From a virus: a stretch of 64,000 nucleotides of DNA. A model generated the notes under the pieces. The model was given only the letters and a program-made list of their open reading frames with translations, ran no database searches and was not told the origin of the DNA. The stretch lies in the IMG/VR virus record IMGVR_UViG_3300045988_176028; one strand, given 5' to 3'. Shown here piece after piece: positions 15,301 to 41,100 of the stretch (position 1 is the first letter of the stretch; each line of letters starts with the position of its first letter). Position numbers and translations under genes: made by a program.

Positions 15301-15687
15301 CTGTTCCGAACCCCGTTACATCCCGCCGACGTGTCCATCCGGTATGCGGACGGCAAGGTCAGGGACGCCATCCGACAGGGACACGCAACCTGCATCGCAC
15401 GACTCACCGTCAACGATGAAATCAAGTTGACACCTGAGATGATGAGGGACATGTGTCCTGAATATGCGAACATGTTCCACACAGATTCCGGCGTCGAACG
15501 ACGATTCATCGTGGCCGGCTTCCCCTCCCCTATCCAGTTCAGACTAGTTCCCTCCGTCATTGCAGAAGAAGGATTAAGTAAGATGGTTGAACAAGGTTTG
15601 GAGGTTCCCCCCAAGGTCGAGAAGATGTTCAAACTGCACACCTTCGTTCCAGTGGTCAATAAGATTGGACATGTTTTAGAGCAGTAA
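12361..15687 (+). CDS. cas9: Cas9, type II-C (actinobacterial-size, 1108 aa)
   Basis: RuvC-I motif YRVGADVGLNSLGFSAI. Arg-rich bridge helix GIARRTRNMRKRRRHR. HNH motif ELDHIVPR...CPECNANKSN. RuvC-III motif RRHHAVDASVIAM. Followed directly by cas1 and cas2, with no csn2 or cas4. Confidence 0.95.
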   Translation: MTAKTNIRYRVGADVGLNSLGFSAIQLDANGNPITLLKTLSYIHDGGVDPTQNKSGTTRKAMAGIARRTRNMRKRRRHRLNQLDRQLYQLGYPVDEVPESEHGLYEYWNVRSALATAYVPDKDKRDRMMVMAIRHIARHRGWRNSYSRVETLFEDVEPSDQYKDLKQRVETRLGMKLDEDMTPAQLVALTLSDRDENFMRVRTSTKYGEGVLPSRLMQSDNARELRRIFTVQQVPEDVWKPILRTVFHCASPKGSAEKHVGTDPLDQTQKRALKASIAFQKYRILNVITNLRIRRKGEASRPLTVNEKQDVYELLTTAKEDLEWLDVCAVLDIERNELKGVGTLTHDGEERIGNKPPVLDTVIRLHGIKNTKLRKMMDAWWNTATETEQAAMIRLLSNTVDLDKVRDLIEYASPIEFIDGLDEDLLTPLDSISLPVGRAAYSEKTLTRLSKRMLETEDDLHYAIRHEFNVPADWKLPVPPVQEPTGNPAVDRVLKAFNRFLSQCEQQYGIPESIAIETTKESFSSIAFGRTLDYERRQRRDKDNQTRAAIREDMRKQLSNGGSFKVHDYDIRRWEIVQSQNNTCLYCGATSPRFSFDKSELDHIVPRRGVGSDSKRTNMAAVCPECNANKSNIPFAVWVHSDYAKAHGITMNDVIARVNQLMFPPSMNRKQVSQVKKAIISRLKQTEQDEPLDNRSIESVGWMADELHRRLDGRYANKTVKVSTFPGSITYEARRASGIDGQIHFIGAQWKTRLDRRHHAVDASVIAMMNQSVALRLAERHYLRESQRLCGTPFGQADWKQYPNENTPGYDQYQQWSGQMKNLLHLLNKGLDEDTIPVVRSRRLRLGNSTAHDATVKPLQYVRLGDAMPTSLIDHALTPQVWKALTGLSDYDPQNGLPANPKRVITALGEVCHAKDEIGFLPGNNAQLFVNGGAADIGGTIHHARIYRCEQVLKNGKRKTFYGMVRVFQCDLMKRRKNTDLFRTPLHPADVSIRYADGKVRDAIRQGHATCIARLTVNDEIKLTPEMMRDMCPEYANMFHTDSGVERRFIVAGFPSPIQFRLVPSVIAEEGLSKMVEQGLEVPPKVEKMFKLHTFVPVVNKIGHVLEQ

Positions 15688-15708
15688 CCACCGCTTCTAA
15701 TCGTTTCT

Positions 15709-15766
15709 AAAAAGGAAAGGGTCTACCAAAAACCATCTAAGGTTATCAGTAGACCCTTTCCTTTTT
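15709..15766. terminator. strong inverted repeat between cas9 and cas1 (terminator/attenuator-like)
   Basis: AAAAAGGAAAGGGTCTAC ... GTAGACCCTTTCCTTTTT: an 18-bp perfect stem with a 22-nt loop and a T-run, placed directly before the cas1 RBS AGGAGG. Confidence 0.6.
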
Positions 15767-15777
15767 AGGAGGTTGAT

Positions 15778-16668
15778 ATGGCAAAAGGGTGGCGAGTCAT
15801 CGACTGCACCGCAATGACCGGCAGACTGACCTACAAGCGCGGACAACTCGTCGTGGAACACCACGATACGGAGACGCGGATACCGTTGGCCGATACGGCG
15901 GTGCTGCTGCTCGGTATACAAACAACCGTCTCCACAGCACTATTGCAGCAATTGGCGGTCTTCGACGTGGAAGTGCTCATCTGCCAATGGAATCAGACAC
16001 CAATCGCGGCAATGCAATCATGGAACAAACCCAACACCCGTTCCGCCGCCCGTCAGAACGCACAACAGGAAATGAGCCTACCGGCAAGAAAAGCCGCATG
16101 GCAGAAAATCATACGAGCGAAAATACTAGGACAATCCCACGTACTCGACAAACTCAACTTGGACGGAGGGGAACTCTTAAGAAGTCTAGCCGTCCAAGTC
16201 CACTCCGGCGACCCGAACAACATCGAAGGACAGGCGGCACGCGAATACTGGCATCACATGTTCTCTGAAGAACAATTCCGCCGATTCCCCGGATATGGCG
16301 AAGGGCACAACGCTCAACTCGATTACGCGTACACGGTACTGCGTGGATTCCTGATTAAGTCCATCTGCACAGCGGGACTCTCCCCCACCATCGGCATACA
16401 TCACCATTCAGCCAGCAACTATTTCTGTCTGGCAGACGATTTGATAGAACCGTTCCGACCGGCCATCGACTACCAGATAAGCCAACTACCGGACGGACCG
16501 TTGGACTCGGAAATGAAACAGCAGATAGTGCTGTCCGTCAACAGCCAATTCAACCCAAAAGAACTAACCATCCCATCACTGGTGGACGAATTTTGTGGAC
16601 AATACGCGCAATACTGCGAAGGCTGGCTGGACAAACTACCCGTCCCCGTCTTCGGAAAAAGGCGCTAA
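15778..16668 (+). CDS. cas1: Cas1 integrase
   Basis: 296 aa. Motifs NIEGQAAREYW, NAQLDYAYTVLRG and GIHH....N.F.LADDLIEPFRPAID are typical of type II Cas1. Confidence 0.92.
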   Translation: MAKGWRVIDCTAMTGRLTYKRGQLVVEHHDTETRIPLADTAVLLLGIQTTVSTALLQQLAVFDVEVLICQWNQTPIAAMQSWNKPNTRSAARQNAQQEMSLPARKAAWQKIIRAKILGQSHVLDKLNLDGGELLRSLAVQVHSGDPNNIEGQAAREYWHHMFSEEQFRRFPGYGEGHNAQLDYAYTVLRGFLIKSICTAGLSPTIGIHHHSASNYFCLADDLIEPFRPAIDYQISQLPDGPLDSEMKQQIVLSVNSQFNPKELTIPSLVDEFCGQYAQYCEGWLDKLPVPVFGKRR

Positions 16669-16670
16669 AA

Positions 16671-17012
16671 ATGAAGAGAGATAAGGATAACGGCATGTGG
16701 ACGCTGGTCATGTACGACCTACCCATTACAACGAGAGAGGATGCGGGAGCCGCGAACAGATTCAACCATCTACTCTCTGATTTAGGTTTCGTTCGAGTGC
16801 AATATTCCGTCTATGCAAGATATACCCCCACCCAATCAGGCGGTCGTTCTGCGTTAAAGTATATTCAAGCCGGACTACCTCCCCACGGCAACGTGCGAGT
16901 ACTCTGCGTAACGGACAATCAATGGTCTGATTCACTGAAGTACATCGATAAAAAACAGCAGACCACAGACGAACAGCCGGGGTTACTGACGCTTTTTGAC
17001 GACGAAGAATAG
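16671..17012 (+). CDS. cas2: Cas2
   Basis: ATG is 2 nt after the cas1 stop. MWTLVMYDLP...RF...L...GF.RVQYSVY matches the Cas2 ferredoxin-fold N-terminus. An alternative start at 16695 is possible. Confidence 0.85.
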   Translation: MKRDKDNGMWTLVMYDLPITTREDAGAANRFNHLLSDLGFVRVQYSVYARYTPTQSGGRSALKYIQAGLPPHGNVRVLCVTDNQWSDSLKYIDKKQQTTDEQPGLLTLFDDEE

Positions 17013-17033
17013 TTTAAAAACGTTGATATGAAG

Positions 17034-17066
17034 CCTTTTGCCCAAACTCGTAGTTTGAGCAAAAGG
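17034..17066. repeat. 15-nt inverted partial repeat forming a hairpin with the first CRISPR repeat
   Basis: CCTTTTGCCCAAACT-cgt-AGTTTGAGCAAAAGG. The single non-Watson-Crick position is a G:U pair only in minus-strand RNA. The left arm is the exact complement of the repeat variant at 17501. Confidence 0.6.
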
Positions 17067-17716
17067 TAATACGACATATATTCAAACCTGTTCGCCATAT
17101 GCTATCGTAAGAGTGAGTTTGAGCAAAAGGTAATACGACATATATTCAAACTGATGTCGCACGCGGATTAACGCTCTGGAGTTTGAGCAAAAGGTAATAC
17201 GACATATATTCAAACCACAAGCACACTGAATGTACGTCGTTGAAGTTTGAGCAAAAGGTAATACGACATATATTCAAACTTCAAAAATGGCTATTTTCCA
17301 ACGTTTTAGTTTGAGCAAAAGGTAATACGACATATATTCAAACTGTCCAGTGATTTCCCTCTCCTCACCGGAGTTTGAGCAAAAGGTAATACGACATATA
17401 TTCAAACTAAAAATGAAAGGATTGAAGAAAACATAAGTTTGATTAAAAGGCAATACAACATATATTCAAACCAAAACGGGAACAGGCATTGAACGGTGGG
17501 AGTTTGGGCAAAAGGTAATACGACATACATTCAAACTGCGAGTTTCCCTTCAGTGTGATTAAAAGGCAATACGACATATATTCAAACTGAAGCATTCAGT
17601 GCTTACGCGTCCGAAAAGTTTGAGCAAAAGGCAATACGACATATATTCAAATCAGGCTGCATATTTTCGTCAAAATCGACAAGTATAAATAAGGAAAATA
17701 CGACATATATTCAAAC
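17052..17716. CRISPR. CRISPR array: 11 repeats of 36 bp, 10 spacers
   Basis: Consensus AGTTTGAGCAAAAGGTAATACGACATATATTCAAAC. Repeats start at 17052, 17116, 17180, 17244, 17308, 17372, 17436, 17501, 17552, 17617 and 17681. Spacers are 28-29 nt, except a 15-nt spacer at 17537-17551. Repeats 7-11 carry substitutions and the last is degenerate in its first 18 nt. The pairing logic suggests crRNAs are read from the minus strand. Confidence 0.95.
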
Positions 17717-17847: not shown

Positions 17848-18053
17848 GTTTGGCGTTTGACATGGCTTGGTTGTTTCCCATCAGTGAGTTCATGTCGTGA
17901 ACACTGGCATGTATGCGTGAGTCAAGAGGGTGCAAGGCATACGGCTTGCTGACAGTCCTTCATGGATTTCAGGATTGTCGTCCATCGCGCATGTGAGAGT
18001 CATGCCATGGATTGTCCCACGAGCTTTAGGGGTATAAAAAGTGTGGGACTTTG

Positions 18054-18125
18054 TGCGGGAGACGAGATTCGAACTCGCGATACTTGCTTGGAGGGCAAGG
18101 GTGATGACCTTTTCACTACTCCCGC
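18054..18125 (-). tRNA. tRNA-Gly (anticodon UCC), non-canonical C33
   Basis: Hand-folded cloverleaf. Acceptor GCGGGAG/CTCCCGC, T-arm GCGAG-TTCGAAT-CTCGT, anticodon arm CTTGC-CCTCCAA-GCAAG. CCA is not encoded. Confidence 0.7.
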
Positions 18126-18244
18126 AATAGGAGGGGATGGATTGTGTTTGCGGGCTGGAAAGCACTACATGCAGAGAAAAAATGTTTACGACCATTCCAA
18201 ACTATTATGGGATGGAAGACTCGCAATCAGAAACCCATTCCCAG

Positions 18245-18332
18245 CGGAGTCGGAGGGATTCGAACCCTCGAACCGTATGAAACGGTTAACACCTTAGCAG
18301 GGTGCCCCTATCGGCCACTCAGGCACGACTCC
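18245..18332 (-). tRNA. tRNA-Ser (anticodon GCU), long variable arm
   Basis: Acceptor GGAGTCG/CGACTCC, anticodon loop CTGCTAA, variable arm AACCGTTTCATACGGTT, T-arm GAGGG-TTCGAAT-CCCTC. Confidence 0.8.
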
Positions 18333-18371
18333 GAAGTTTCGACACGCCAAAAACAGCCGGTCGAAACTTAG

Positions 18372-18442
18372 CTCCCCATGATGGACTCGAACCACCTCTA
18401 AAGGTTCCAAAGACCCGTGTGCTGCCATTACACTAATGGGGA
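18372..18442 (-). tRNA. tRNA-Gln (anticodon UUG)
   Basis: U1:A72 with G73 discriminator, as in bacterial tRNA-Gln. Anticodon loop CTTTGGA, T-arm GGTGG-TTCGAGT-CCATC. One mismatch at the top of the anticodon stem. Confidence 0.7.
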
Positions 18443-18474
18443 ATGTGCAGACCGTTTTGACGGCCCGCGAATAA

Positions 18475-19320
18475 TTATTTGGATTTTGAAATCAGCTTGT
18501 CAATGTCCGCGCCCAACTGCCTTAACTGGGCGAAAGAGTTGGCGACGTTGTTTTGCGCCGTTTCCTCTCTCTGCTGAGCGGCTTCCATCAGCTTCTTGCT
18601 GTTCGCATCCAATTCGGCGGCATGCTGTTCAGCCTTCTTGGTTCGGAGGTCGATTTCCTGTGACGCCTTGTCCAAACGGTTGACTGCGTCAGCTTCCGCC
18701 TTGCTGATAATCTGTTCGGCTTGTTTCTTGGCCGCGTCCAACTGGATGGCAACCTTATCGTCGGTTTCCTTTTTCAGTTTGGCGCATTCCTGTTCAAGCT
18801 TCTGCTTCTTATCCTGTGCGGCGGTCATCATCTGTCTGGTGGTTTCCGTCGCGGAGTCGAGCCGCTTCTGGGATTCATCCTTGGCCTGTTGGAGAATCTG
18901 TTCGGCTTGCGTGCGGGCCTGTTCCAGCTCCTCACGTTTCTTCGACTCGTAAGTGTTTTTCAACGTTTGGAATTCTTTGCCGAGGCTGGTGCCTAATTCC
19001 TGCATCGGGTTTTCCGACGCTTGACGGGCGTCCTGCAAGTCGGCGTTCAACCGTTCAATCTGCTGGCGGAGGGATTCAGCTTCCTGCTCCCGTTTGCCGA
19101 GTTCGGATTGACGCTTGTCCAAGACCATGTTTTTTTCCGTTAACTGGCGTTGCAGATTCCAAATCTGTGTTTCCAACCCGTTCACGTACTGTTCAACGGA
19201 ATCCTTGCGATAACCGTTGAATCCGGTGGGGAGGTTGAGTGGTTGTACCTGTGGCTGGGTCATTCCTTCCACGGTGAGAGCGTGGGAGGAGATGACCCGT
19301 GTTTCATCAGACATGGTCAT
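18475..19320 (-). CDS. DivIVA-domain coiled-coil protein
   Basis: Start at ATG 19320 (MTMSDETRV...). N-terminal LPTGFNGYRKDSVEQYVNGLETQI matches the DivIVA signature F...RGY....V..F. The rest is a long heptad coiled coil. The longer ORF, which starts at 19713, runs over three tRNA genes and is rejected. Confidence 0.7.
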   Translation of the reverse strand: MTMSDETRVISSHALTVEGMTQPQVQPLNLPTGFNGYRKDSVEQYVNGLETQIWNLQRQLTEKNMVLDKRQSELGKREQEAESLRQQIERLNADLQDARQASENPMQELGTSLGKEFQTLKNTYESKKREELEQARTQAEQILQQAKDESQKRLDSATETTRQMMTAAQDKKQKLEQECAKLKKETDDKVAIQLDAAKKQAEQIISKAEADAVNRLDKASQEIDLRTKKAEQHAAELDANSKKLMEAAQQREETAQNNVANSFAQLRQLGADIDKLISKSK

Positions 19321-19355
19321 TTTGAGTTCCTTCTTTTCTGGTTGAAAAACACGAG

Positions 19356-19428
19356 AGCCTAGAGCGGGGGTCGAACCCGCGACCTTCTGTTCCGGAGACA
19401 GACGCTCTATCCACTGAGCTATCAAGGC
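19356..19428 (-). tRNA. tRNA-Arg (anticodon CCG)
   Basis: D-arm GCTC-AGTGGATA-GAGC, anticodon arm TCTGT-CTCCGGA-ACAGA, T-arm GCGGG-TTCGACC-CCCGC. One U:U mismatch in the acceptor stem. Confidence 0.75.
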
Positions 19429-19485
19429 GATGGGGCGAAACCTATGGGGAATCGCCACTGTAAAGGAAGAACCATTCATGGTTCG

Positions 19486-19568
19486 TGCTTCGGGAGGGAA
19501 TCGAACCCTCACGTCAATATGACAAAGCTTTTTGAGAGCTTCGCGTTTACCTGTTTCGCCACCGAAGC
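19486..19568 (-). tRNA. tRNA-Leu (anticodon CAA), long variable arm
   Basis: Acceptor GCTTCGG/CCGAAGC, anticodon arm AAGCT-CTCAAAA-AGCTT, variable arm GTCATATTGAC, T-arm GAGGG-TTCGATT-CCCTC. Confidence 0.8.
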
Positions 19569-19686
19569 GGGATGAGCCTCCGCAGAGGCTCAGCAGACCG
19601 TTCCCGCGACTGGGCGGGTCGGCTGAAAACTGGAACCGCCATGAGACGGCTCCGAAGCCTTCTCGAACAACCTGTAAGAGAAGTAG

Positions 19687-19757
19687 TATGTCACGCTGGA
19701 ATCGAACCAACATCTACGGTTTTGGAGACCGTGGCTCTACCGTTGAGCTAGTGACAT
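19687..19757 (-). tRNA. tRNA-Trp (anticodon CCA)
   Basis: Acceptor ATGTCAC/GTGACAT, anticodon arm ACGGT-CTCCAAA-ACCGT, T-arm GTTGG-TTCGATT-CCAGC. Confidence 0.75.
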
Positions 19758-20022
19758 ATGGGGTGGGCTACCAACGTAGACGCCACCCTCTCGTTGTCCT
19801 GTAGTTAGCGTCCAAGTCCAACTCGATAGACGCGGCATGGCGGGTTGGATTTTACCGCCAACGGCAAGGTCGTGGGCTGCTAAGTACCCCGTTTCACCGT
19901 TCTTCCCCTTCGGTCATCAACCACCTGATTAAGGCAGGGAAACTCTTATCCTCCACAAGACCATGTAGGATTATTCGAGCAATGCCATCAGTTTCACGGA
20001 CAGCTACCTCCATGAAACCTAG

Positions 20023-20096
20023 CACCCAAGGTTGGAGTCGAACCAACGACGTCCGGTTTAGGAAACCGGCGCTCTATTCCGCTGAGCTACAAGGGT
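20023..20096 (-). tRNA. tRNA-Arg (anticodon CCU), acceptor stem with two U:U mismatches
   Basis: D-arm GCTC-AGCGGAATA-GAGC, anticodon arm CCGGT-TTCCTAA-ACCGG, T-arm GTTGG-TTCGACT-CCAAC. Acceptor ACCCTTG/CTTGGGT pairs at only 5 of 7 positions. Confidence 0.6.
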
Positions 20097-20316
20097 GTAT
20101 GTCTCCGTTCCGCGAGGACACCCGCAACGCGTCTTCCGGATTGGAGTCATTCACATCAGCCGTTCGCTACTTACCATTGTTGCGGGGCAATGGCTTTCTC
20201 TAATGGGATGATGGTGTTTTACGCGCATTCCACGCGGACGCTTTTAATTGCCCATCCAATACGACGAGCCACAGGATTACACTCCCGATTTCCCGCAGTT
20301 ACGCCAACTGCGGTCG

Positions 20317-20389
20317 TGCCCCCCGTGGGATTCGAACCCACAACCCACGACTTAAAAGGACGCTGCTCTAACCATTGAGCTAGAGGGGC
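20317..20389 (-). tRNA. tRNA-Lys (anticodon UUU)
   Basis: Acceptor GCCCCTC/GGGGGGC, D-arm GCTC-AATGGTTA-GAGC, anticodon loop CTTTTAA, T-arm GTGGG-TTCGAAT-CCCAC. One mismatch in the anticodon stem. Confidence 0.75.
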
Positions 20390-20459
20390 GGAACAGGAGG
20401 TGAAGGAACGAAAACCCACCTCCCGCTTGGATTAGTTAAAGGAGAACCATCAAGGTTCG

Positions 20460-20543
20460 TGCTCCGAGAGAGATTTGAACTCTCACACCTTTTCAGGTAA
20501 AGCATTTTGGGTGCTTCGCGTCTACCGATTTCGCCATCAGAGC
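20460..20543 (-). tRNA. second tRNA-Leu-like gene (anticodon CAA), non-canonical C33, long variable arm
   Basis: Acceptor GCTCTGA/TCGGAGC, anticodon arm AAGCA-CCCAAAA-TGCTT, variable arm ACCTGAAAAGGT, T-arm GAGAG-TTCAAAT-CTCTC. Confidence 0.65.
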
Positions 20544-20808
20544 GTCGCGCGATTGAGGGACGTGCGTTTTCGTTCTTACAGAACGACCCATTGATTTTCG
20601 TACCACCCTCCCCGCTTACAAATCAACAAAAGTCAGAGATTGGAGGAAACTGATTTTTTGTTTACAAAGTTTTTCCTTCAAGTTTGGAGAGTCTGTTTTG
20701 CAGGAGTCGCTTAGCACGCACATCAGTTTCCTCTATTTAGAGTTTGGATAAAAGCCCGTAAGGCAATTATCCAAACATTGTTTTGAATACGGTATGCATT
20801 CAAAATCG

Positions 20809-21177
20809 TGGAGCCGGAGGGAATCGAACCCTCGTCCTTGAAAACGTTGATGATGTTTTCTACATGTTTAGCCATCTCATTTATATATGTTGAAAGTTCC
20901 AGTCGAAGAGGCACCCCGGAACAGTTTTGCAACTCAGTCATGAAACGATGAACAGTTGCCGTTCACCGAGTTTTTGCTGTCCTTTCTTTTTCAGAATCGC
21001 CTTACAGCAAATCAGTGACCCTGTTCTTCCTTCACCGTGTTTCAGGCGGCGAGCTGGAAGTTACGCGAAGAATTCGTCTTGGCGTTTATTGTTTGACATG
21101 GATTGATGACGGTTGTCCACGTCAGCCTCCGACATGCTTGCATTATCTTGATTTTCAAGTCGAAACCTGTCGGCCCC
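20809..21177 (-). ncRNA. ssrA: tmRNA (ssrA)
   Basis: 5' end GGGGCCGACAGGTTTCGAC. 3' end GGACGAGGGTTCGATTCCCTCCGGCTCCA. The acceptor stem GGGGCCG/CGGCTCC carries the G3:U70 alanine identity pair. Internal tag frame GCC AAG ACG AAT TCT TCG CGT AAC TTC CAG CTC GCC GCC TGA encodes AKTNSSRNFQLAA plus stop. About 369 nt. Confidence 0.85.
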
Positions 21178-21773: not shown

Positions 21774-22046
21774 ATGCAGTCCAAGCAAATACGAGAAGCA
21801 ACCACAGTCGCATATATAGAAGACCAGCTCAAGTCGGAAGACCCCACTCTCATACAGTCGGCCACGGGGAATCTAGCCAGACTGTATGGAATGACCACGC
21901 TCTCCCAACTGACCGGTTTGGCGAGGCCATCCCTCTACCGAAGCCTATGCGGTCAAGGAAACCCATCCTTCCAAACCATGTGCAGGGTATTGGACGCCAT
22001 GGGGTACACAGTCACGGTGAAGCGTAAGGAGACGGAACATGAGTGA
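21774..22046 (+). CDS. HigA/addiction-module-antidote-like HTH protein (no toxin partner seen)
   Basis: 90 aa. ...LARLYGMTTLSQLTGLARPSLYRSLCGQGNPSFQTMCRVLDAMGYTVTV matches the antidote-family pattern (G..R..LY+.L...GNP.F.T...VL.A.G). Overlaps the repA start in ATGAGTGA. Confidence 0.55.
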   Translation: MQSKQIREATTVAYIEDQLKSEDPTLIQSATGNLARLYGMTTLSQLTGLARPSLYRSLCGQGNPSFQTMCRVLDAMGYTVTVKRKETEHE

Positions 22047-23094
22047 CAGGCAAGTGGAACAGAACGCTCTAGACATTGACATACCCGGCATGGAGTTGGA
22101 TGTTCGACGGGTCAACCTGTTGGACGATATAGAAGCCCGCGAGCCGAACAGTATGGAAATATGGTATGGGCATTCCATTCTCACCGCCACACTGTTTCCA
22201 CCAGCCCAACCGTCCGATGATGTGGATTTCGTCAGCAAGTCGAACGGACGGTTGGAATACATGCTTGAAGCTGGCGTGACGGGTGATGGGGATGATAGGA
22301 AACGCCGGTTCCCGTTCGGCAAATATCCGAGACTGTTGATGGCTTGGATGGCTAAGCAGATTCGTGCGGCGAAAGGCCATAAGACGAGGAATGTTGACCC
22401 GGAGACGAAGACCATCACCATTCCAAGCATCTACCAGTTGTGTGAGGAAATGGGATTGCCGCATGGCGGGCGTACCGCGAAGAGCGTGCAGGAACAGTTG
22501 GAACTGTTGTTGGCTTGCCGTATCAGTATTCGCGCGTCCGGCACGGGCAAGGGGTTGAATGTGAGGGATACGGCCTATCTGCCTATCGTTCAGGCCGTGC
22601 GCATTATCAATGATGAGAAGAATGTGGGCTATTCCGGTGCCACGTTCCGTCTGACCGATGAAGTGTATGAACGGTTGAGTCGTGAGTCGGCTCCGTTCGA
22701 TACGAGAGTGTCCACTTACCTTTTGAAAGGCAGGTCGGTCATGCCTTACGACATTTACATTTGGCTGACTGGCAGTATGAAGAATCTTCGCCGTGACCTT
22801 CCGGTGAGTTGGGATTGGCTGTATGAACGGTTCGGAGACCAGATTGCGGTCAAGAAGTCTTTTCGGCGCATGTTCCGTCAATCGTTGGAGAAGGTCAAGA
22901 AGGTGTATCCGGGGTTGAATGTTGAGTGTCCAACGTATGAGGATTACATTATTCTGCATCCGAGTCCCACGTCGGTTCCTACCCGTGCTGTCCGTGAGGT
23001 TGAGGTGGGTGCTAATGGGGATGTGTTCGAGGTGGCTTTGCATTCGTTGCAATCGGTTCAACGGAAAGGTGTACGAAAGGCCACGTCAGATTGA
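22039..23094 (+). CDS. repA: RepA-family plasmid replication initiator (paralog 1)
   Basis: 351 aa. KYPRLLMAWM..., ...YDIYIWLTGSM......VSWDWLYERFG......FRRMFRQSLEKVKKVYPGL follows the RepA C-terminal-domain pattern shared with the two genes at 54.4-56.3 kb. An iteron field starts at its 3' end. Confidence 0.7.
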   Translation: MSDRQVEQNALDIDIPGMELDVRRVNLLDDIEAREPNSMEIWYGHSILTATLFPPAQPSDDVDFVSKSNGRLEYMLEAGVTGDGDDRKRRFPFGKYPRLLMAWMAKQIRAAKGHKTRNVDPETKTITIPSIYQLCEEMGLPHGGRTAKSVQEQLELLLACRISIRASGTGKGLNVRDTAYLPIVQAVRIINDEKNVGYSGATFRLTDEVYERLSRESAPFDTRVSTYLLKGRSVMPYDIYIWLTGSMKNLRRDLPVSWDWLYERFGDQIAVKKSFRRMFRQSLEKVKKVYPGLNVECPTYEDYIILHPSPTSVPTRAVREVEVGANGDVFEVALHSLQSVQRKGVRKATSD

Positions 23095-24326: not shown

Positions 24327-24869
24327 CTATTTTCCTAGTTCGCTGAGCTTGGTCGGCGCTTTCTTATGTTTGAGCGGCAACGGTTTCCCGTCCGTCTGAT
24401 TATAGACGCAGTAGTTGCCGTTGTCGGTTTTGTGGATTACCACGTTGACCTGCCGGTTGTCCTTCGTGTAGACGGAGCATTCGGCGTCCACACCGTTCTC
24501 GATGTCCTTCATTGAGTCCACGGTGTATTCGCCCCGTCTCGCGGAATGTATTATCCCTTTGGTTGTTGGGATACTACTGTCTGTATCGGAGTACTCCTTG
24601 TGTGTGCAGTTGATGCTGGACAGTCCGTACACGTATTCCAAGCTTTGGTTGAGGGACGGGGCTTTCGGCATTTTCACCGTGGTCGCGGTGACGAACGAGA
24701 GGAAGAACACGAGAACGGAAACAGTCGAAACCAGTGTCCGACCCTTGTTCACAGCGAAAGCGCCGACAACAAGAGCAATGACACTAACGATAATGAGAGA
24801 ACTGATAATAAAATCGCCCGTACTCGCTTGGTCGGCAACCTCCTGCCAAGCGGAGAAATCCGCTGTCAC
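24327..24869 (-). CDS. two-TM membrane protein with small extracytoplasmic domain (paralog of 30368-30811)
   Basis: 180 aa. Same layout as the 147-aa protein at 30368-30811: short N-terminus with F..W, two TM helices, a beta-rich Cys-containing domain, and a KAP(T/S)K tail. Confidence 0.5.
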   Translation of the reverse strand: MTADFSAWQEVADQASTGDFIISSLIIVSVIALVVGAFAVNKGRTLVSTVSVLVFFLSFVTATTVKMPKAPSLNQSLEYVYGLSSINCTHKEYSDTDSSIPTTKGIIHSARRGEYTVDSMKDIENGVDAECSVYTKDNRQVNVVIHKTDNGNYCVYNQTDGKPLPLKHKKAPTKLSELGK

Positions 24870-25645
24870 TTCTGAACCTTTTCCAGTCGGGTGGACAGTT
24901 CCGCCAATCCGTCGATGATTTTATTCTCCTCCACGGTTTTCCTCCCACCGGCTCGACCGTCACGGAAGCGTTTCTCGCACTCGCCCATACCCCTGCGGAT
25001 ATCCTCATTGGTGATGCCATAGGCGATAGCGAACGTTCCCAACGCTTCCACCACGTCGCAATACTCTTCGACCAACCGACTGTAAATCCGCTTGTCGGAA
25101 GTGCCGTCGGCAACCCAATCCATTCCCACTGCGGCGAGTTCAGCAGACTCCTCCAACAGTTTCCGCCCCTGCCGGTCGGATGGTTCCGCATATTCCGGAG
25201 CGAATGTTCTGACGGTGCCAAGACTAGCCAACCCGTGTTCAGTCATTTCCACGCCACGCCCGATGAACTTGTAGCCGGGATTCTGTTCGCAATAGTCGCG
25301 CACGTCACGCAACCATTGGATAGCATTGGGGATACTCCCCCAGCGGATGACCTTCCCCGTGTTGTCGAGGAAGTATTTCTGTTCCAATTCGTTGATGGAT
25401 TTTTTTTCGATTTCATCCAACGCTTCGTCAATAATGTCCTTGACCACGATGGCGGACTTGCCGTGCAGGTCTGTGGTGGGGCGCACATGGAACGCTTGGA
25501 AGAAATCGGAATAGTTGAAGGTCGGATTACAGGAAGTGCCTACCATATCCAAATTTTCCAGTCCACGGTCTTGCCAATCGCAAGCGACCATGAACACCAT
25601 ATCGTCCGGAATGTCGGAACGGACTATCGCAATATCGTAACTCAA
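24866..25645 (-). CDS. hypothetical protein with MazG-like NTP-pyrophosphohydrolase C-terminal domain
   Basis: 259 aa. The C-terminal LLEESAELAA....D.......LVEEYCDVVEALGTFAIAYGI resembles the EExxE...E..D helix pair of MazG-like proteins. The N-terminal ~150 aa have no recognisable family. Confidence 0.45.
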   Translation of the reverse strand: MSYDIAIVRSDIPDDMVFMVACDWQDRGLENLDMVGTSCNPTFNYSDFFQAFHVRPTTDLHGKSAIVVKDIIDEALDEIEKKSINELEQKYFLDNTGKVIRWGSIPNAIQWLRDVRDYCEQNPGYKFIGRGVEMTEHGLASLGTVRTFAPEYAEPSDRQGRKLLEESAELAAVGMDWVADGTSDKRIYSRLVEEYCDVVEALGTFAIAYGITNEDIRRGMGECEKRFRDGRAGGRKTVEENKIIDGLAELSTRLEKVQK

Positions 25646-25941
25646 ATCGCACCTATTCTTTCAAAGAGTGCCCAACAGAACATGATAAAAAGGATTGTCG
25701 CCATGATGATGAACGCCACCATCAGGGCGACGGCCAAATGATAAAGGAACCGCCAGCCGTAGATTCGTACTCCCAGCCAACGTTTCTGCCCCGAAGTGTA
25801 GGAGTGTTCCAAAAACGCTTTTTCCAAGAGCGTGACGGAACGGTCGAACAATACCGCCATCGTGTGCGACATGAGCACACCGGCTATACAACCTATGCTC
25901 AATACCAGTCGGACGAGTATGCCAGCCATGATTCCATTCAT
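25642..25941 (-). CDS. hypothetical membrane protein
   Basis: Internal ATG start at 25941 (MNGIMAGILV...). Three hydrophobic helices. 4-nt overlap with the upstream gene. Confidence 0.4.
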   Translation of the reverse strand: MNGIMAGILVRLVLSIGCIAGVLMSHTMAVLFDRSVTLLEKAFLEHSYTSGQKRWLGVRIYGWRFLYHLAVALMVAFIIMATILFIMFCWALFERIGAI

Positions 25942-26204
25942 TCCTCTAAGTTCAGTACCGCCAGCTCGCAATCCAATCGTCGGGCAATGTCCAGTTTGGT
26001 ACCGGAGAGTCGGAATTGCGTGCCGACGGCGGTTCCGTTTCGATACTTTTGGGCGACCATATTCGACTGGATGTGAATGATGTTCCGTGCATGCTTGTAA
26101 CGCCACACGTTGCCTCCACCATCACTGTCGAGGTTCATTCTCATGTTACGGTAGAAGTCCACGTTGTCGTACAGGTCTCGGGGGGTTAACGGGTCAGTCT
26201 GCAT
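25938..26204 (-). CDS. hypothetical protein
   Basis: 88-aa ORF in an operon context with overlapping stop/start codons. Confidence 0.4.
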   Translation of the reverse strand: MQTDPLTPRDLYDNVDFYRNMRMNLDSDGGGNVWRYKHARNIIHIQSNMVAQKYRNGTAVGTQFRLSGTKLDIARRLDCELAVLNLEE

Positions 26205-26391
26205 CGAGCATTTCCTTCCACTTTTCCAATTCGTTCAAATCGATAGAGAATTGTTTATGTTCGGTGCAGTCGGAAAAGTCGATGGTCAGATACGGTTTTC
26301 CACGGAAAGTGTCACTGGACACGATGACGGTGTCACTGCCCAGTCCGCCCTTCTCATGTAACAGTTTGTAATATTTTTTATCCGGAACCAT
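26194..26391 (-). CDS. hypothetical protein
   Basis: 65-aa ORF in an operon context. Confidence 0.4.
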   Translation of the reverse strand: MVPDKKYYKLLHEKGGLGSDTVIVSSDTFRGKPYLTIDFSDCTEHKQFSIDLNELEKWKEMLDAD

Positions 26392-26415: not shown

Positions 26416-26646
26416 TCAGGAGAGTTTGACCAGAATTCCGTAAGCGATGATGAGAACGAACCAGACGACAGCCGCCACTACCGTCCAACGGTTCAGGTTC
26501 TTTTCCGCCACGCCCGAGCTTCCCGCCGAACCTGTCAACGATTCAGCGAAATTCGAGAAACCGCCTCCCTCGCCTTTGTGCATGAGAATGAGGGGAACGA
26601 GCATGAGACTCAACACGGCGATGAATCCAAGAAGGATATGTTTCAT
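26416..26646 (-). CDS. secG: SecG-like preprotein translocase subunit (paralog on accessory DNA)
   Basis: Start at ATG 26646 after AAGGAG. 76 aa. MKHILLGFIAVLSLMLVPLILMHKGEGGGFSNF.....GSAGSSGVAEKNLNRWTVVAAVVWFVLIIAYGILVK matches the actinobacterial SecG layout (TM - H.KGGG.S..F - GS..V.EKNL.R.T - TM). Confidence 0.75.
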   Translation of the reverse strand: MKHILLGFIAVLSLMLVPLILMHKGEGGGFSNFAESLTGSAGSSGVAEKNLNRWTVVAAVVWFVLIIAYGILVKLS

Positions 26647-26648
26647 AA

Positions 26649-27065
26649 TTACTGCTCCTTTGTTTTGTTGTAGAAGACCAGACTTTTCCATCCGCTCGCA
26701 AGCCGCCAATGTTCGCCCGGCAACCGCATAAGCAACGGTTGCAGGATGCCTTCGACGATGAGCTGGTCTAGTGACCCGTGTACGGCGACCGTCCGTCCTC
26801 GCACGATGGTGCCGTCCACGGTGACGGCCTTGACCATGCGGCTGTCCAAAACCTTCGGTTCGACGTTCTCCCAGTCGAGGTCGGCGGGCTGGTCTTCCTG
26901 CGAGTCCAAGGCGGCTTTAGCGAGACGGCGGAACGAGTCATGTATCGCGTCCATCTGCCCGTCCCACAAGTCTCGTATCTGTTCTTCGCTCGGATTGAAG
27001 TCGGCCCAGTTGGTTTGCGCGGCGAAGACCGCAATTGCGGTTTTTTCGATGCGTTCATCCGGCAT
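26649..27065 (-). CDS. hypothetical protein
   Basis: 138-aa acidic ORF between the secE-like and secG-like genes. Confidence 0.45.
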   Translation of the reverse strand: MPDERIEKTAIAVFAAQTNWADFNPSEEQIRDLWDGQMDAIHDSFRRLAKAALDSQEDQPADLDWENVEPKVLDSRMVKAVTVDGTIVRGRTVAVHGSLDQLIVEGILQPLLMRLPGEHWRLASGWKSLVFYNKTKEQ

Positions 27066-27327
27066 AGAATTTTCCTTCCTTACTGCAATCCAACACCTGC
27101 AATGCGCTCACATGGTCGGCTTCCTCCAATAGGCCGGACGGGGCTTTCATGATGATGGGCACCATGACTCCCATGTAGACGCCTATCGCCCCACCGGGAG
27201 CTATGATGATGGTTCCGTCCACGACGGTGCCGTTGTCGAATCGGGCGATGACGCGTTGCCCTTCGAGTTCGGTCGTTGTGGCATGCCGCCAGTCCACGGG
27301 ATTGTAGACGATGCCTTCGCCGCCCAT
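27055..27327 (-). CDS. hypothetical protein
   Basis: Internal ATG at 27327 overlaps the secE-like stop (ATGA). 90 aa. Confidence 0.4.
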   Translation of the reverse strand: MGGEGIVYNPVDWRHATTTELEGQRVIARFDNGTVVDGTIIIAPGGAIGVYMGVMVPIIMKAPSGLLEEADHVSALQVLDCSKEGKFYAG

Positions 27328-27578
27328 CAGCCGAACACCCACAATGTCAGCTTGCCCAGTCCGAAGTCCATTCCTGAGACAAGCGCCATGAGCAGCAGCA
27401 CGAAGATTCCGGACGCGACGCACCAGCCCGCCCATTCGCGGACGGTGGGCGTGACTACCTTGCGGATTTCGGCCACAACCTGTTTGACGAAACGGATGAC
27501 GCCGAGGAATCCTTGACCGATTCTGACGAACGGATTGTTTTTCCCATCGGCAATGACGGGCGTGGCTTTCTCAACCAT
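27327..27578 (-). CDS. secE: SecE-like preprotein translocase subunit (paralog on accessory DNA)
   Basis: 83 aa. RFVKQVVAEIRKVVTPTVREWAGWCVASGIFVLLLMALVSGMDFGL matches the SecE signature (F...V..E(L/I)RKV.WPT..E + TM + D), with Trp replaced by Thr in the WPT position. Confidence 0.7.
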   Translation of the reverse strand: MVEKATPVIADGKNNPFVRIGQGFLGVIRFVKQVVAEIRKVVTPTVREWAGWCVASGIFVLLLMALVSGMDFGLGKLTLWVFG

Positions 27579-27789
27579 AGATTTCCTTCCATTGAATCAG
27601 ACCGTCGATAATTTTCGCGGCGGTTCGATTGTCCAAATATTTCTTATTCAAGTCTTCCTTATAGCGGACTACGGGAGGGCAGTTTTCGAGGTTTTTCACG
27701 TTATTAAGGTCGGACTGGTCGGTGAGTTTGAGAATTAGTCGAATCTGAGCTTCCGTGGCCTTGCGTTTCTGTCCCGCGTAAATCATCAT
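27571..27789 (-). CDS. hypothetical protein
   Basis: 72-aa ORF in an operon context. Confidence 0.4.
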   Translation of the reverse strand: MMIYAGQKRKATEAQIRLILKLTDQSDLNNVKNLENCPPVVRYKEDLNKKYLDNRTAAKIIDGLIQWKEIYG

Positions 27790-28271
27790 TGCTCTCCCCG
27801 GCCAGAGTGGTGGACGTTTGTCGTTCGGAAGTGTTCCGATAACAGGTCTTTCGTGTTTTTTCTTAATTGGGCTGACGCGAGTTCCTGCACTTGAGAGACC
27901 GCTATCACATAGTCGGTCAGCTGGCTGGCGAATTCCTTATCATGATGGCGTCGAGCCAGTTCGCAGACAGCGTCGATTGCCGAAGTGTGGAAAATGTCCG
28001 ATACTGGTTCGATGTAGTCACCGTCTGCCATGAGGGCACGGTATTCGAATCGGTTTCCGCAGTTGATTTCCCGAACCATGCCGTAGTCCTTACCGTCAAC
28101 CACGACTTGATAGTCTTTAGTTTTGCTGGAGGATTGCGTGTAGCAGGGGAAGTTGATGGCAGACAGTGTTGCCGAATACTGGTCTTGTACCATCGCCAGT
28201 TCTTCGTCCACCCAGCCGAGTGAACGTAGTTGGATGGGGTTTGCCGGTTTTTTGGGGTTTTGTTTTTCCAA
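27786..28271 (-). CDS. hypothetical protein (first gene of the secE/secG-containing operon)
   Basis: 161-aa ORF with promoter motif P8 21 nt upstream. Confidence 0.5.
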   Translation of the reverse strand: MEKQNPKKPANPIQLRSLGWVDEELAMVQDQYSATLSAINFPCYTQSSSKTKDYQVVVDGKDYGMVREINCGNRFEYRALMADGDYIEPVSDIFHTSAIDAVCELARRHHDKEFASQLTDYVIAVSQVQELASAQLRKNTKDLLSEHFRTTNVHHSGRGEQ

Positions 28272-28291
28272 GCTTTCCTCCCAAAGACTGC

Positions 28292-28315
28292 TTATGTGTG
28301 GACTTATCCAGTATA
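28292..28315 (-). promoter_or_regulatory. conserved promoter/operator motif, copy P8
   Basis: Gene-sense TATACTGGATAAGTCCACACATAA. Confidence 0.55.
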
Positions 28316-28346
28316 GCAGAGTTTTCTTCGGAAGGAAAGCCGACGT

Positions 28347-38157: not shown

Positions 38158-41100
38158 CTACTTCTTGTGGCGTGCGGTCACGGTCGTGTTTCCGCGACAG
38201 TGGGCGAGCATCAATCCCATTCCCACGAGTGTGAACAGAATGACCGTCATGATAGGCGTGTTCACACCGGTTTGGGCGAGTTGGCGAATCGTCTTCACGA
38301 TGGCCGGTGTCGCCGGTGGAATGTACGAGTTGGTGAACTCAGGTTGGGTTCCAGTGGTTGTGACCATGCTGGGGGTTGTGGTCGGATTGTTCTCATCCTC
38401 ACCGGCATCCCCGTCGGTCTTGTCGGCCTTAGCGGTCGGCATGACGGGCATGGTGCTGGAATCCTTCGCCGTATCGTCCGTCGGGTCGTATTGGACTTTG
38501 GCGGTCAGGTTGCCTTGCAGGTTGTCGCTTACGGTGACGGTCACGTGATGTTCCGTCTTGTCGTAGGTGACGTTCTTCTCGCCGGTGTTCTTCTCGCGAA
38601 TCACATACCGGTATTCACCGCAATCATCCACTCCATCATTGTCTCTACCGTAGGTGAGCGGCTTGAACTGGATGTTGCCCTGCTTGTCGTTCTTCTCACT
38701 GTCGATGACATTGCCCTTGTCGTCCACAAGTTCGAACTCGAATTCGTAGGCTTGCAGTTCACGTCCGGTCAGATTCTTCTTGGCCGACAGTTCGACCAAC
38801 ACGTCTTCCGGCTGGTACGTGTTCTGGAAGAGGATGCTCTTTTCGCTGGCTTTGCCGTTGGAGTAGGCGACGCTGGCGGCGAGCTTGTGGCTCTTCGTGT
38901 CCTCGGTGACGGTGATGGTGACGGTGTGGCTGGTGGTGTCGTAGGCGACGCCGCCCAATGTTCCGTCCTGTTCGTCAACCGTGTACGTGTACACGCCGGT
39001 CTTGTCGAACGTGAGCTTGTCGAATTCGAGGGTCCCGTCGCCTTCGCGTGCAGTTACCTTGTCGGATTGCGCGTCGCGTGGAACGCGGGCGAACTGTTTG
39101 GCTTGGAGCAGGTTGCCGTTGGAATCCTTCAATTCGGCGGAGAATTCGTTGTCGTTCAGGTCACGTCCGGTCAGATGTTTGGCCGCTTCGAGTCGCACGC
39201 TAACCGGTGTCGGAGTATACGTGTTGTCAAATCGGATGTCATTGGTCTGACGGTCGGCGGTGGCAGCGAGCATGCCGTCTTGGTCGGTGACGGTGACGGT
39301 CACATCGTATTCCTGAGTGGAGTAGCCGATGGTCTTGTCCGTTCCGGCGAGTTCCTTCACGTGATACGTGTATACGCCGGGCATGGTGTAGACCATTTGA
39401 CCGAATGTGAAACCGCTTCCCTTGTTGGACACGGTTTGCGTTCCGTTTTGGCTTCCGACTGGCATTGGCATGTCGTTCATGCTGATGGCGTTGCCGTCCG
39501 CGTCGCGTGCGGATACCGCGTTCAACTGGAACTTGAATTCACCGTCCTGCGGAACGCGGCTGGTTGCCGTATCCGTGTTGACGATGTTTTTCACGCCGCT
39601 GATAGAGTATCCGACGTTCTTCGGACTGTAATGGTTGGTGAACGTGATGTTCTTGCCGTTAGCGCCGGTGGTCGGGGTGACGGTCTTGGATACGACGGTC
39701 AGCTTGCCCGTATGGTCAACATCCTTGACCACGTAGGTGATGGTCGCAACCGTCCCGTCCTTCGTGACGCCCGGAACGGTCGTATCCTGCTCCGACATGG
39801 TGAACACGTAGGTGCCTACGAGCGGGAACGACAGTTGGTCGAATCGGATGTTGCCCTGCCGGTCGTTCCGTTTCGTCTGGTCGGCGTTCGACACGTTGGC
39901 GGGCGCGGACTGTTGTTGGAGCGTGAATGCGAAGTCTTCGCCCTTGAGCGTGTACTTGTTGCCCTTGGGGGAGGTCATCTTCTTCACTGCGGTCGGATTG
40001 TCCGTGGCGGGTTGGGCATGGTACGTGTTGGTGAATTCCGGAATGTTGGTTCCGTTATCATACTTCACGTCGGCCAACAGTTGGCCTTCGCCATTGTCGG
40101 TGACGGTGACTTTCACATGATGTTTCGTAGCATCATAGGTGACGCCGCCCCTGTCGCCGTGGACTTCGCTGAGCGTGTAGTCGTACACTCCCGTCTTCTT
40201 GTAGGAGATGGTGTCGAACAGGATGTTGCCCTGCTGGTCGTTGGTTTTCACCGTTCCAGCCTGACCGCCTGTCTTGTCCTCGACGCATTTGAACTCGTAT
40301 TGTCCGGCTTGCAGTTGGATGCCTGTATGGTCGGGGTCGTTGAGGGTCTTGTGCGCACGGAATTGTACGCTGACCGGCTTCGCCTGATACGTGTTCGTGA
40401 ACGTGGTCGGATAGGCCGCGTTCGTTCTGGTTTGGGCTTTCAACTGTCCGGTCAAATCGTCGGTGACGGTGATTTGCCACATTCCCATGTGGGAATCGTA
40501 GTTGACGCCGCCCGCCGACTGGCGGACTTCACGCACCGTGTAGGTGAACGTGCGGGTTTTGGCACCGTTCAACTGTTGGGCGGTGAACGTCAACGGTTGG
40601 AAGCTGATGTTTCCGTTTTGGTCGGCGTTCACGGTTTGCAACGGCTTGCCTACCGCCTGCTCGTTGTCGAACAGTTGGAATTGGAAGTCGGTGAGTTTCG
40701 CATGGCTGGCGTTCTTGTTGTCGAACGTCTTGTGTGCGGTGAGGCTCACGGTCACGTCCTTCGGCTGATACGTGTTGTGGAAGACCGGGGTCTTGTTCGT
40801 ATTGTCGTAAGAGGTGGAGGTTTTCAACTGTCCGTAACCGTTGTCGGTGACGTTGACGTGCATGGCGTGGACGGTCTGGTCGTAGGTGATGCCTTTGAAC
40901 TGTCCCGTCTTTTCCACGATACGGTAATCGTGTTCACCTACCGTATTGTAGGCGAGCTTGTCGAAGGTTAAGGTTCCGTCCGCATTGTTGGTCTTGGATT
41001 GGATGGTCTTGCCATTCTTGTCCTGCAATTCGAATGTGAACTCGTTGGCGTTCAACAGGCGGAGCGTGTGCTTCGGATTGTCGATTACCTTGCTGGCTTT

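Follow-up and report, generated by a model that had tools for sequence, protein, structure and literature searches.

A 64,000-nucleotide stretch of DNA catalogued as IMG/VR virus record IMGVR_UViG_3300045988_176028 – analysed here at its full length and referred to below as the window – carries paralogues of SecE and SecG, subunits of the Sec translocon whose genes are textbook examples of single-copy core genes. Both lie on what can be regarded as a very common gut megaplasmid of ~220 kb, attributed to Bifidobacterium adolescentis and its relatives, and the secE–secG pair itself appears to be part of the conserved backbone of a Bifidobacterium megaplasmid superfamily that includes pMP7017. 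As to what the pair does, the explanation that we favour – at about an even chance of being right – is that these are functional plasmid paralogues which support general translocon capacity rather than a substrate-specific pathway.

The secE–secG pair and the plasmid that carries it

The family assignments made in the original prediction were borne out by profile searches, in which both proteins scored above the curated cutoffs of Pfam and TIGRFAM alike, marking them as true SecE and SecG homologues. The SecE protein, of 83 amino acids (aa), reaches 43.5 bits against the Pfam SecE model (PF00584; gathering cutoff 22.7), with model positions 1–55 of 55 covered, and 40.0 bits against TIGR00964 (cutoff 27.55); the 76-aa SecG reaches 54.9 bits against the Pfam SecG model (PF03840; gathering cutoff 29.2) and 55.5 bits against TIGR00810 (cutoff 30.85). 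The amphipathic cytoplasmic helix, the conserved hinge and the single C-terminal transmembrane (TM) helix of SecE are all present in the plasmid copy, in which a TM scan found a single hydrophobic segment (residues 48–66). Its hinge, RKVVTPT, is the same as in chromosomal Bifidobacterium SecE, and its TM segment, LLLMALV(S/T)GMDFGLGKLTLW, is nearly identical to the chromosomal one. SecG has two hydrophobic segments, and its loop motifs align with the HKGKGGG...GVAEKNLNRWT of Actinobacteria. Alignments of plasmid with chromosomal copies contain 22 invariant columns in SecE and 16 in SecG.

Two departures from consensus deserve comment. A Thr in place of a conserved Trp in SecE had been read as a deviation peculiar to the paralogue, but the same KVVTPT occurs in every chromosomal Bifidobacterium SecE; the argument from this residue to functional divergence is therefore void, and the substitution, being genus-wide, was rejected as a sign of neofunctionalisation. 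In the window SecG, Glu replaces Lys in the near-invariant HKGKGGG loop motif (K25E; codon 26 at 26569–26571, residue 25 without the initiator Met). This allele is rare, being present in only five contigs of the assembly collection; loci L001–L008 have Lys, the common plasmid allele.

Both genes are preceded by Shine–Dalgarno sequences, AAGGAG ahead of secG and GGAAGGA ahead of secE. The ATG of secE overlaps the 3′ end of an upstream 71-aa gene, its stop codon shares one base with the next start, and the ATG of secG lies 2 nt past the preceding stop. As both starts overlap or abut an upstream stop codon, translational coupling of secE and secG to their neighbours, as originally proposed, is plausible.

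The operon to which they belong is headed by a promoter-like site, positions 28318–28292 reading TGCTATACTGGATAAGTCCACACATAA, in which an extended −10 element is followed by a box. An element-specific promoter copy had been claimed here (28292–28315), and the pattern TATACT(5-9 nt)GT[TC][CT]ACA[CT] does indeed recur: the window has 13 matches, of which 12 are on the minus strand, against 0.04 in shuffled sequences. The recurring box, of the form TATACT..GTTCACAC, can be taken as a real but already known element, the orthologue of the published regulon box of pMP7017 – a 34-bp motif, AWAYATGYTATACTGAATATGTCCACATAAAAWA, with 19 copies there and promoters predicted to drive 56 genes (PMC10832533). 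The window lineage, L059, L075 and L078 each have a copy ahead of the secE operon; none was found near secE in L056 or L076.

That the genes are additional to the chromosomal ones and sit on an extrachromosomal element, as the original prediction held, agrees with several lines of evidence. Pfam identifies three RepA_C genes in the window, two of them in tandem (one is listed in Table 1; the others lie at 54396–55304 and 55401–56291), and RepA is 53–56% identical to its counterparts on pMP7017, from B. breve, and on five B. longum megaplasmids; for pMP7017, RepB alone is reported to have been shown to be the functional initiator (PMC8313286). The assembly collection lists the exact SecE protein in 3040 blocks and has it on at least 1000 contigs, many of them 205–230 kb long with the gene order kept. 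Identical proteins are named ‘MULTISPECIES Bifidobacterium’ or B. adolescentis at NCBI, where close SecG variants go under B. pseudocatenulatum and B. catenulatum. Within 10 kb past the high end of the window, there are also an FtsK/SpoIIIE protein and a multi-domain cell-wall hydrolase, both conjugation functions.

Megablast searches of PLSDB and of a phage collection returned no near-identical DNA match for the element. Taken with the RepA identity of 53–56% and the host names at NCBI, this places it as a sister lineage of the pMP7017 family, seemingly with a different principal host. Relatives of pMP7017 have been defined by an identity of at least 70% (PMC10832533), and the backbone of the window falls below this value, with 53–56% for RepA and 56–59% for SecE and SecG. 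The traits of the family are nonetheless present: a RepA-type replicase, the box regulon, a tRNA array and an FtsK/SpoIIIE module. Like pMP7017 (B. breve JCM 7017, NZ_KM406416.1) and the B. longum megaplasmids, the element has secE and secG in the same order and on the same strand near a RepA_C gene, together with giant sortase-anchored proteins, CRISPR-Cas and TnpB elements; unlike them, it has two genes inserted between secE and secG, and a type II system with Cas9 where theirs is type I-E.

The genomic setting of secE differs sharply between chromosomes and plasmids. On Bifidobacterium chromosomes the gene is part of the canonical tRNA-Trp–secE–nusG–rplK–rplA cluster, with nusG downstream in 43 of 44 loci (the exception being a 552-bp contig), whereas nusG adjoins secE in none of the plasmid loci and was not found in the window. 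The lack of this housekeeping context is what would be expected of a paralogue, and bears on orthology, not on family membership. A SecE scan of GTDB species representatives returned chromosomal copies only, all next to nusG, and no plasmid hosts. A few Bifidobacterium secE–nusG contigs (L015–L018, L023 and L051) were met in metagenome-assembled genomes labelled Dysosmobacter, Senegalimassilia, Acidaminococcaceae, Anaerovoracaceae and Parabacteroides, likely through binning contamination.

All 21 plasmid loci, drawn from lineages whose SecE is 56–76% identical to that of the window, have secE followed by secG with no change of strand; both genes are present, and labelled by RefSeq, on pMP7017 and on each of the five B. 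longum megaplasmids in PLSDB. The distance between the two is far less constant. It amounts to 19 bp in L056 and L076 and ~30 bp in L058 and L059, with no gene between, to 185 bp in the pMP7017 type (one 69-aa gene), to 684 bp in the window type (two genes), to 1354 bp in L006 and similar loci (a third gene, radical-SAM-like) and to 2227 bp in L075. Because the gap varies over this range, and because four loci have no gene in it, the adjacency of secE and secG is best read as ancestral and the 90-aa and 138-aa genes of the window as lineage-specific insertions into what looks like a permissive insertion hot spot. The earlier description of two other genes between secE and secG was thus accurate for the window, if not for the family, and a conserved Sec module comprising these two genes and the 71-aa gene was rejected: only the secE–secG pair is universal. 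The diverged pair would accordingly be a stable backbone trait of the megaplasmid family. The third insert encodes a 226-aa radical-SAM-like protein (L006 10514–11194, also in L068, L073 and L074), which at 29.0 bits stays under the Pfam cutoff of 29.5.

Descent of the plasmid copies and their possible SecY partners

Mean SecE identity is 86% among chromosomal copies, 73% among plasmid copies and ~64% between the two groups. In a neighbour-joining phylogeny that includes the host chromosomal copies, plasmid SecE proteins form a separate clade of their own (bootstrap 95/100), and this monophyly points to one ancient event in which secE was taken up from the chromosome of a bifidobacterium. The plasmid-specific changes of SecE fall in the cytoplasmic helix and hinge, where ‘GLFIKQ...xKELFFW’ has become ‘GRFV(K/R)Q...VREWAGW’. 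For SecG, the window, L056, L058 and L059 form a clade (bootstrap 92/100) with a distinctive loop, ‘GGGFSN-FAESLTGSAG’, in which the host LSDMFGGGLTQNAG has given way to ‘FSN-FAESLTGSAG’. The SecG of pMP7017 is nearer to chromosomal SecG (69–75% identity), which hints at either slower divergence or replacement.

The ratio of nonsynonymous to synonymous substitution rates (dN/dS) is 0.30–0.41 for plasmid secE, 0.05–0.23 for chromosomal secE and 0.08–0.43 for plasmid secG. Values well below 1, yet above those of chromosomal secE, indicate that selection on plasmid secE is purifying but relaxed. Among near-identical plasmids, secG alleles differ by 9–11 synonymous and 0–1 nonsynonymous changes. 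Across the window and L001–L010, the 11 copies of secE do not differ in a single nucleotide, while secG, at a distance of only 700 bp, is represented by four alleles that differ at up to 11 synonymous sites – a discrepancy that suggests recombination mosaicism within the operon.

No SecY was found by tblastn in the window or in pMP7017, and the window ORFs (open reading frames) that were scanned include no SecY, trigger factor or sortase. The 10 kb past one end of the window showed no Sec gene. The feature table of pMP7017 lists no SecA, SecY2, YidC, signal peptidase or trigger factor, and neither its annotation nor that of ~119 kb of B. longum plasmid includes a SecA2, SecY2 or Asp-like gene. 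A scan of IMG/VR for the SecY motifs GVMPYIT, L[VI]MWM[GA]E and YGGFIPG matched B. longum-type contigs and none of the window type, the largest of which is 204.7 kb long.

In PLSDB, four B. longum megaplasmids, probably unlike the window lineage, carry secY as well, ~30 kb from secE–secG and beside a WhiB gene. The encoded protein scores 404.6 bits against TIGR00967, stays under the SecY2 cutoffs and is 88–91% identical to chromosomal Bifidobacterium SecY; it thus appears to be near-canonical, with no sign of a specialised channel, and would complete a plasmid-borne SecYEG. On one of these plasmids, NZ_CP143940.1, there are in addition genes for a FemA/FemB-family peptidoglycan bridge enzyme and two DivIVA-domain proteins (91572–92843, 94316–94546 and 113256–114080), one DivIVA gene lying two genes upstream of secE.

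Translocon genes are also found outside their ribosomal-protein context on another group of actinobacterial replicons, the Micrococcaceae megaplasmids of 375–440 kb, which comprise pACHL01 and plasmids of Arthrobacter and Paenarthrobacter. Here secG and secY are adjacent, on NC_011879.1 (L064, L065), NZ_CP099467.1 (L066), NZ_CP104273.1 and NZ_CP053545.1, and secE is present too on NZ_CP053545.1 and on pACHL01 (NC_011879.1), in the latter case ~39 kb from secG–secY; unlike the window, these plasmids carry SecY, SecE and SecG in full. Their SecG proteins are 38–49% identical to that of the window and branch outside all Bifidobacterium copies, which indicates an independent acquisition.

What the additional subunits may do

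If the plasmid copies support general capacity, the 11-gene operon would be transcribed from the promoter with the plasmid regulon box, SecE and SecG would be translated by coupling to neighbouring genes, and both proteins would insert in the membrane and bind SecY – that of the host in the present case, and in the B. longum lineage the plasmid-borne SecY as well. General Sec translocon capacity might in this way be secured, raised or modestly tuned for a load consisting of sortase-anchored giant adhesins, conjugation machinery and many small membrane proteins. Extra subunits could stabilise more channels or keep channels efficient, since in Escherichia coli SecE protects SecY from degradation by FtsH and SecG stimulates SecA-driven translocation.

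Supplementation of this kind fits the housekeeping-like secY of the sister plasmids, and the element’s own tRNA and tmRNA (transfer-messenger RNA) genes, better than a specialised route does. The secY of the B. longum sisters, and the secG–secY and secE of Micrococcaceae megaplasmids, argue that carriage of functional translocon components is under selection in these plasmids. The tmRNA gene of the window (20806–21177, minus strand; 118.7 bits with Rfam; tag AKTNSSRNFQLAA) stands beside an array of nine tRNA genes (the whole region spanning 18053–21177, minus strand), and the two together fit a strategy that might be called ‘bring your own expression and export support’. Arrays of tRNA genes are known in the pMP7017 plasmid family, for which tRNA support has been proposed (PMC5758520); no mention of a plasmid tmRNA was seen in the papers on that family that were consulted.

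Several points weigh against this explanation. The window lineage is probably without secY, as judged from the window, 10 kb past one of its ends and scans covering at most ~93% of the plasmid, and in the absence of additional SecY, added SecE and SecG would gain channels only if SecY is overmade and then degraded. The plasmid copies are ~36–45% diverged from those of the host, the dN/dS of secE is 2–3 times the chromosomal value, and the plasmid copies may accordingly do something other than simple supplementation. The changes cluster in the cytoplasmic helix and hinge of SecE and in the cytoplasmic loop of SecG, and such divergence on the cytoplasmic face may leave room for modified behaviour. 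Finally, the secG of the window has the rare K25E change in a near-invariant motif.

Such modified behaviour could take the form of subunit swapping, in which plasmid SecE and SecG replace the host subunits on host SecY; hybrid translocons formed in this way would differ on the cytoplasmic side, at the SecE helix and hinge and the SecG loop, and so bias export towards plasmid surface and conjugation proteins, or alter host surface biology. We consider this a minority prospect, though a serious one. The window presents a case of SecE and SecG alone on an anciently resident, highly prevalent plasmid lineage, which implies hybrids with host SecY. Were swapping to occur, a plasmid would control the composition of the translocon within a genus that is dominant in the gut.

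A more specific proposal, put forward in the original prediction, is that plasmid SecE and SecG reshape the SecYEG channel of the host for the export of oversized LAxTG adhesins, in the manner of SecA2/SecY2 systems; on the evidence assembled here, we think it unlikely. The proteins themselves were correctly recognised: those of 887, 1338 and 2610 aa all have signal peptides and LAATG or LAQTG motifs, and the largest is a candidate Sec substrate. Giant sortase-anchored proteins also accompany secE–secG in related replicons: pMP7017 encodes proteins of 2080, 1734 and 2111 aa and two sortases, and the B. longum plasmid a 2564-aa FctA protein, these being InlB-repeat- or FctA-type giants of 1700–2560 aa. 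L056 has a sortase gene 2.2 kb 5′ of secE. The expected co-occurrence is therefore found, but within one plasmid family; as its members share ancestry, it is not independent evidence. The secE–secG pair is moreover at least 10 kb from every adhesin gene in the window, and at least 50 kb on pMP7017, in separate transcription units. In other Gram-positives, housekeeping Sec exports very large proteins.

A precedent for dedicated export is the accessory Sec system of streptococci and staphylococci, in which Asp4 and Asp5 are small SecE- and SecG-like subunits of a second translocon, partners of SecY2 in exporting a large adhesin (PMC5076819). Asp4 and Asp5 can be considered functional analogues of the window proteins, which match the canonical SecE and SecG models and not Asp4 or Asp5. 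Other parts of the comparison fail. The accessory system has SecA2, a highly divergent SecY2, Asp1–3 and glycosyltransferases, none of which – and no trigger factor either – was found among the window ORFs or in the annotations of related plasmids; its substrates are serine-rich glycoproteins with signal peptides of ~90 aa, whereas those predicted for the three LAxTG proteins of the window are of ordinary length, ~27–44 aa, on proteins with domains of the FctA or SdrD type. The SecY of the sister plasmids, for its part, is nearly identical to housekeeping SecY. Taken together, these observations count against a route devoted to the adhesins.

A further parallel is offered by the Hodor plasmids, gut megaplasmids that likewise combine Sec subunits with giant secreted proteins and whose authors propose export of the giant proteins via plasmid-encoded Sec components (bioRxiv 2026, PMC12934698). 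Hodors carry a full SecY–SecG–SecE operon, trigger factor and sortase B next to genes for proteins of >7300 aa and ~2642 aa (PMC12934698), which lends the adhesin proposal some support. They are, however, Bacillota-like replicons of >300 kb with a Rep_3 replicon, unrelated to the window plasmid, and the latter has SecE and SecG only, with no SecY or trigger factor found and with the pair away from the adhesin genes.

Still less probable, in our judgement, is a modulating or competing role of the plasmid subunits, in which they displace host SecE and SecG and alter gating or the binding of SecA, the ribosome or YidC, with the outcome that the host surface is re-programmed, rival elements are excluded or the channel is shielded from targeting. 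Such a role would suit the concentration of divergence in cytoplasm-facing parts (SecE ‘xKELFFW’ to ‘VREWAGW’, and the altered SecG loop) and the raised dN/dS of secE, and carriage of pMP7017 is known to change the expression of host surface-structure genes, which is a transcriptional effect (PMC10832533). Yet the canonical motifs are kept, the pair is not linked to genes for toxins, immunity or exclusion, and the normal secY of the sister plasmids suits supplementation better than interference.

It is very improbable that the two genes are passengers with no function on the plasmid, whether neutral or decaying after capture from a host: constraint looser than on chromosomal secE and the rare K25E allele would agree with decay, but the reading frames are intact, the pair persists at all 21 loci, deeply diverged lineages included, dN/dS falls far short of 1 with hardly any nonsynonymous differences among secG alleles, and the exact SecE protein recurs throughout the collection. 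To the idea that the region is chromosomal and holds the organism’s sole SecE and SecG we give almost no credence, as nothing was found in its favour and it is contradicted by the RepA_C genes and their kinship to pMP7017, by the contig sizes, by the lack of nusG, rplK and rplA beside secE and by a G+C content of ~50–55%, against ~60% for bifidobacterial chromosomes (PMC5758520).

Some of this was known before: the secE and secG labels in RefSeq, the regulon box and, from Hodors, the concept of Sec components combined with giant proteins. The Sec genes go unmentioned in the pMP7017-family papers that were consulted. New here are secY on the four B. longum sister plasmids and secY, secG and secE on Micrococcaceae megaplasmids. 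Alongside the Hodor report, these cases suggest that carrying parts of the translocon is a recurrent strategy of large conjugative plasmids of Gram-positive bacteria with giant surface proteins. If the pair merely supplements capacity, the advance is incremental; if it forms hybrid channels with new properties, it would represent a new plasmid mode of host manipulation. The Bifidobacterium case is experimentally tractable because pMP7017 conjugates into B. breve UCC2003, and it provides, in a probiotic genus, a natural test of how the dosage or identity of SecE and SecG affects secretion, plasmid cost, adhesion and conjugation.

Operon neighbours and other features

The operon spans 28271–24327 on the minus strand and comprises 11 genes (Table 1). 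A profile search of the nine products other than SecE and SecG returned no Pfam or NCBIfam match. The gene for the 71-aa protein is kept 5′ of secE in three lineages, with counterparts in L058 and L059 that are 60–66% identical; it is not present in L056 or in pMP7017, whose upstream gene is unrelated. The 90-aa gene is absent from L056, L058, L059 and L076, where secE adjoins secG.

Table 1. Positions of the genes and sites discussed (window coordinates unless an accession is given)
Feature	Position	Strand	Description
887-aa surface protein	6054–8717	minus	signal peptide; LAATG at residue 851
RepA_C replication protein, by the operon	22039–23094	plus	Pfam RepA_C; marks a plasmid related to pMP7017
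Distal operon genes	24327–26391	minus	65 aa, 88 aa, 95 aa (2–3 TM), 259 aa, 180 aa (2 TM)
secG paralogue	26416–26646	minus	76 aa; two TM helices and Gly-rich loop; K25E in HKGKGGG
138-aa gene, secE–secG insert	26649–27065	minus	lineage-specific; soluble, no hydrophobic segment
90-aa gene, secE–secG insert	27055–27327	minus	lineage-specific; no family match; one weak hydrophobic stretch
secE paralogue	27327–27578	minus	83 aa; amphipathic region, KVVTPT hinge, one C-terminal TM helix
71-aa soluble protein gene	27571–27786	minus	stop overlaps secE start
First operon gene	27786–28271	minus	161 aa; TTG start; no TM segment; no family match
Promoter-like site	28292–28318	minus	extended −10 TGCTATACT, then plasmid-specific box GGATAAGTCCACACATAA; just 5′ of first operon gene
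2610-aa surface protein	38158–45990	minus	signal peptide; 9 FctA isopeptide domains; LAQTG at 2571
1338-aa surface protein	46201–50217	minus	signal peptide; LAQTG at 1270, then TM segment and charged tail
Plasmid secY (PLSDB)	NZ_CP143940.1 79767–81137 (L082 8983–10353)		also on NZ_CP065398.1, NZ_CP065396.1 and NZ_CP146883.1

The operon had been described as encoding several small membrane proteins and a MazG-like protein. The first description holds for the 95-aa and 180-aa products, which are clearly membrane proteins, and at best weakly for the 90-aa product, but not for that of 138 aa. The second, which concerns the 259-aa protein, could not be upheld: the protein has no Pfam, NCBIfam or PDB sequence match, and a structure search with an AlphaFold2 model of mediocre confidence (predicted local distance difference test score 67) gave no Foldseek hit at E ≤ 1e-3. 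Its best-probability match is the MazG-like enzyme DR2231, a non-significant fold hint (E ~1) confined to the C-terminal helices. The protein does have a near-invariant EExxE motif.

A few further features of the window may be mentioned. In the 1338-aa surface protein, the charged tail is unusually long, at ~40 aa where a few basic residues are usual. The type II CRISPR-Cas locus extends over 12361–17537 and encodes Cas9 (1108 aa), Cas1 and Cas2; its array, at 17052–17537, has ~7–8 repeats of 36 nt. The CRISPR-Cas system of pMP7017-type plasmids is of type I-E. There is a TnpB gene within the window. Lastly, contigs of this conjugative megaplasmid family are listed by IMG/VR as viral genomes (L067–L081), one example being IMGVR_UViG_3300045988_178845, of 204.7 kb.

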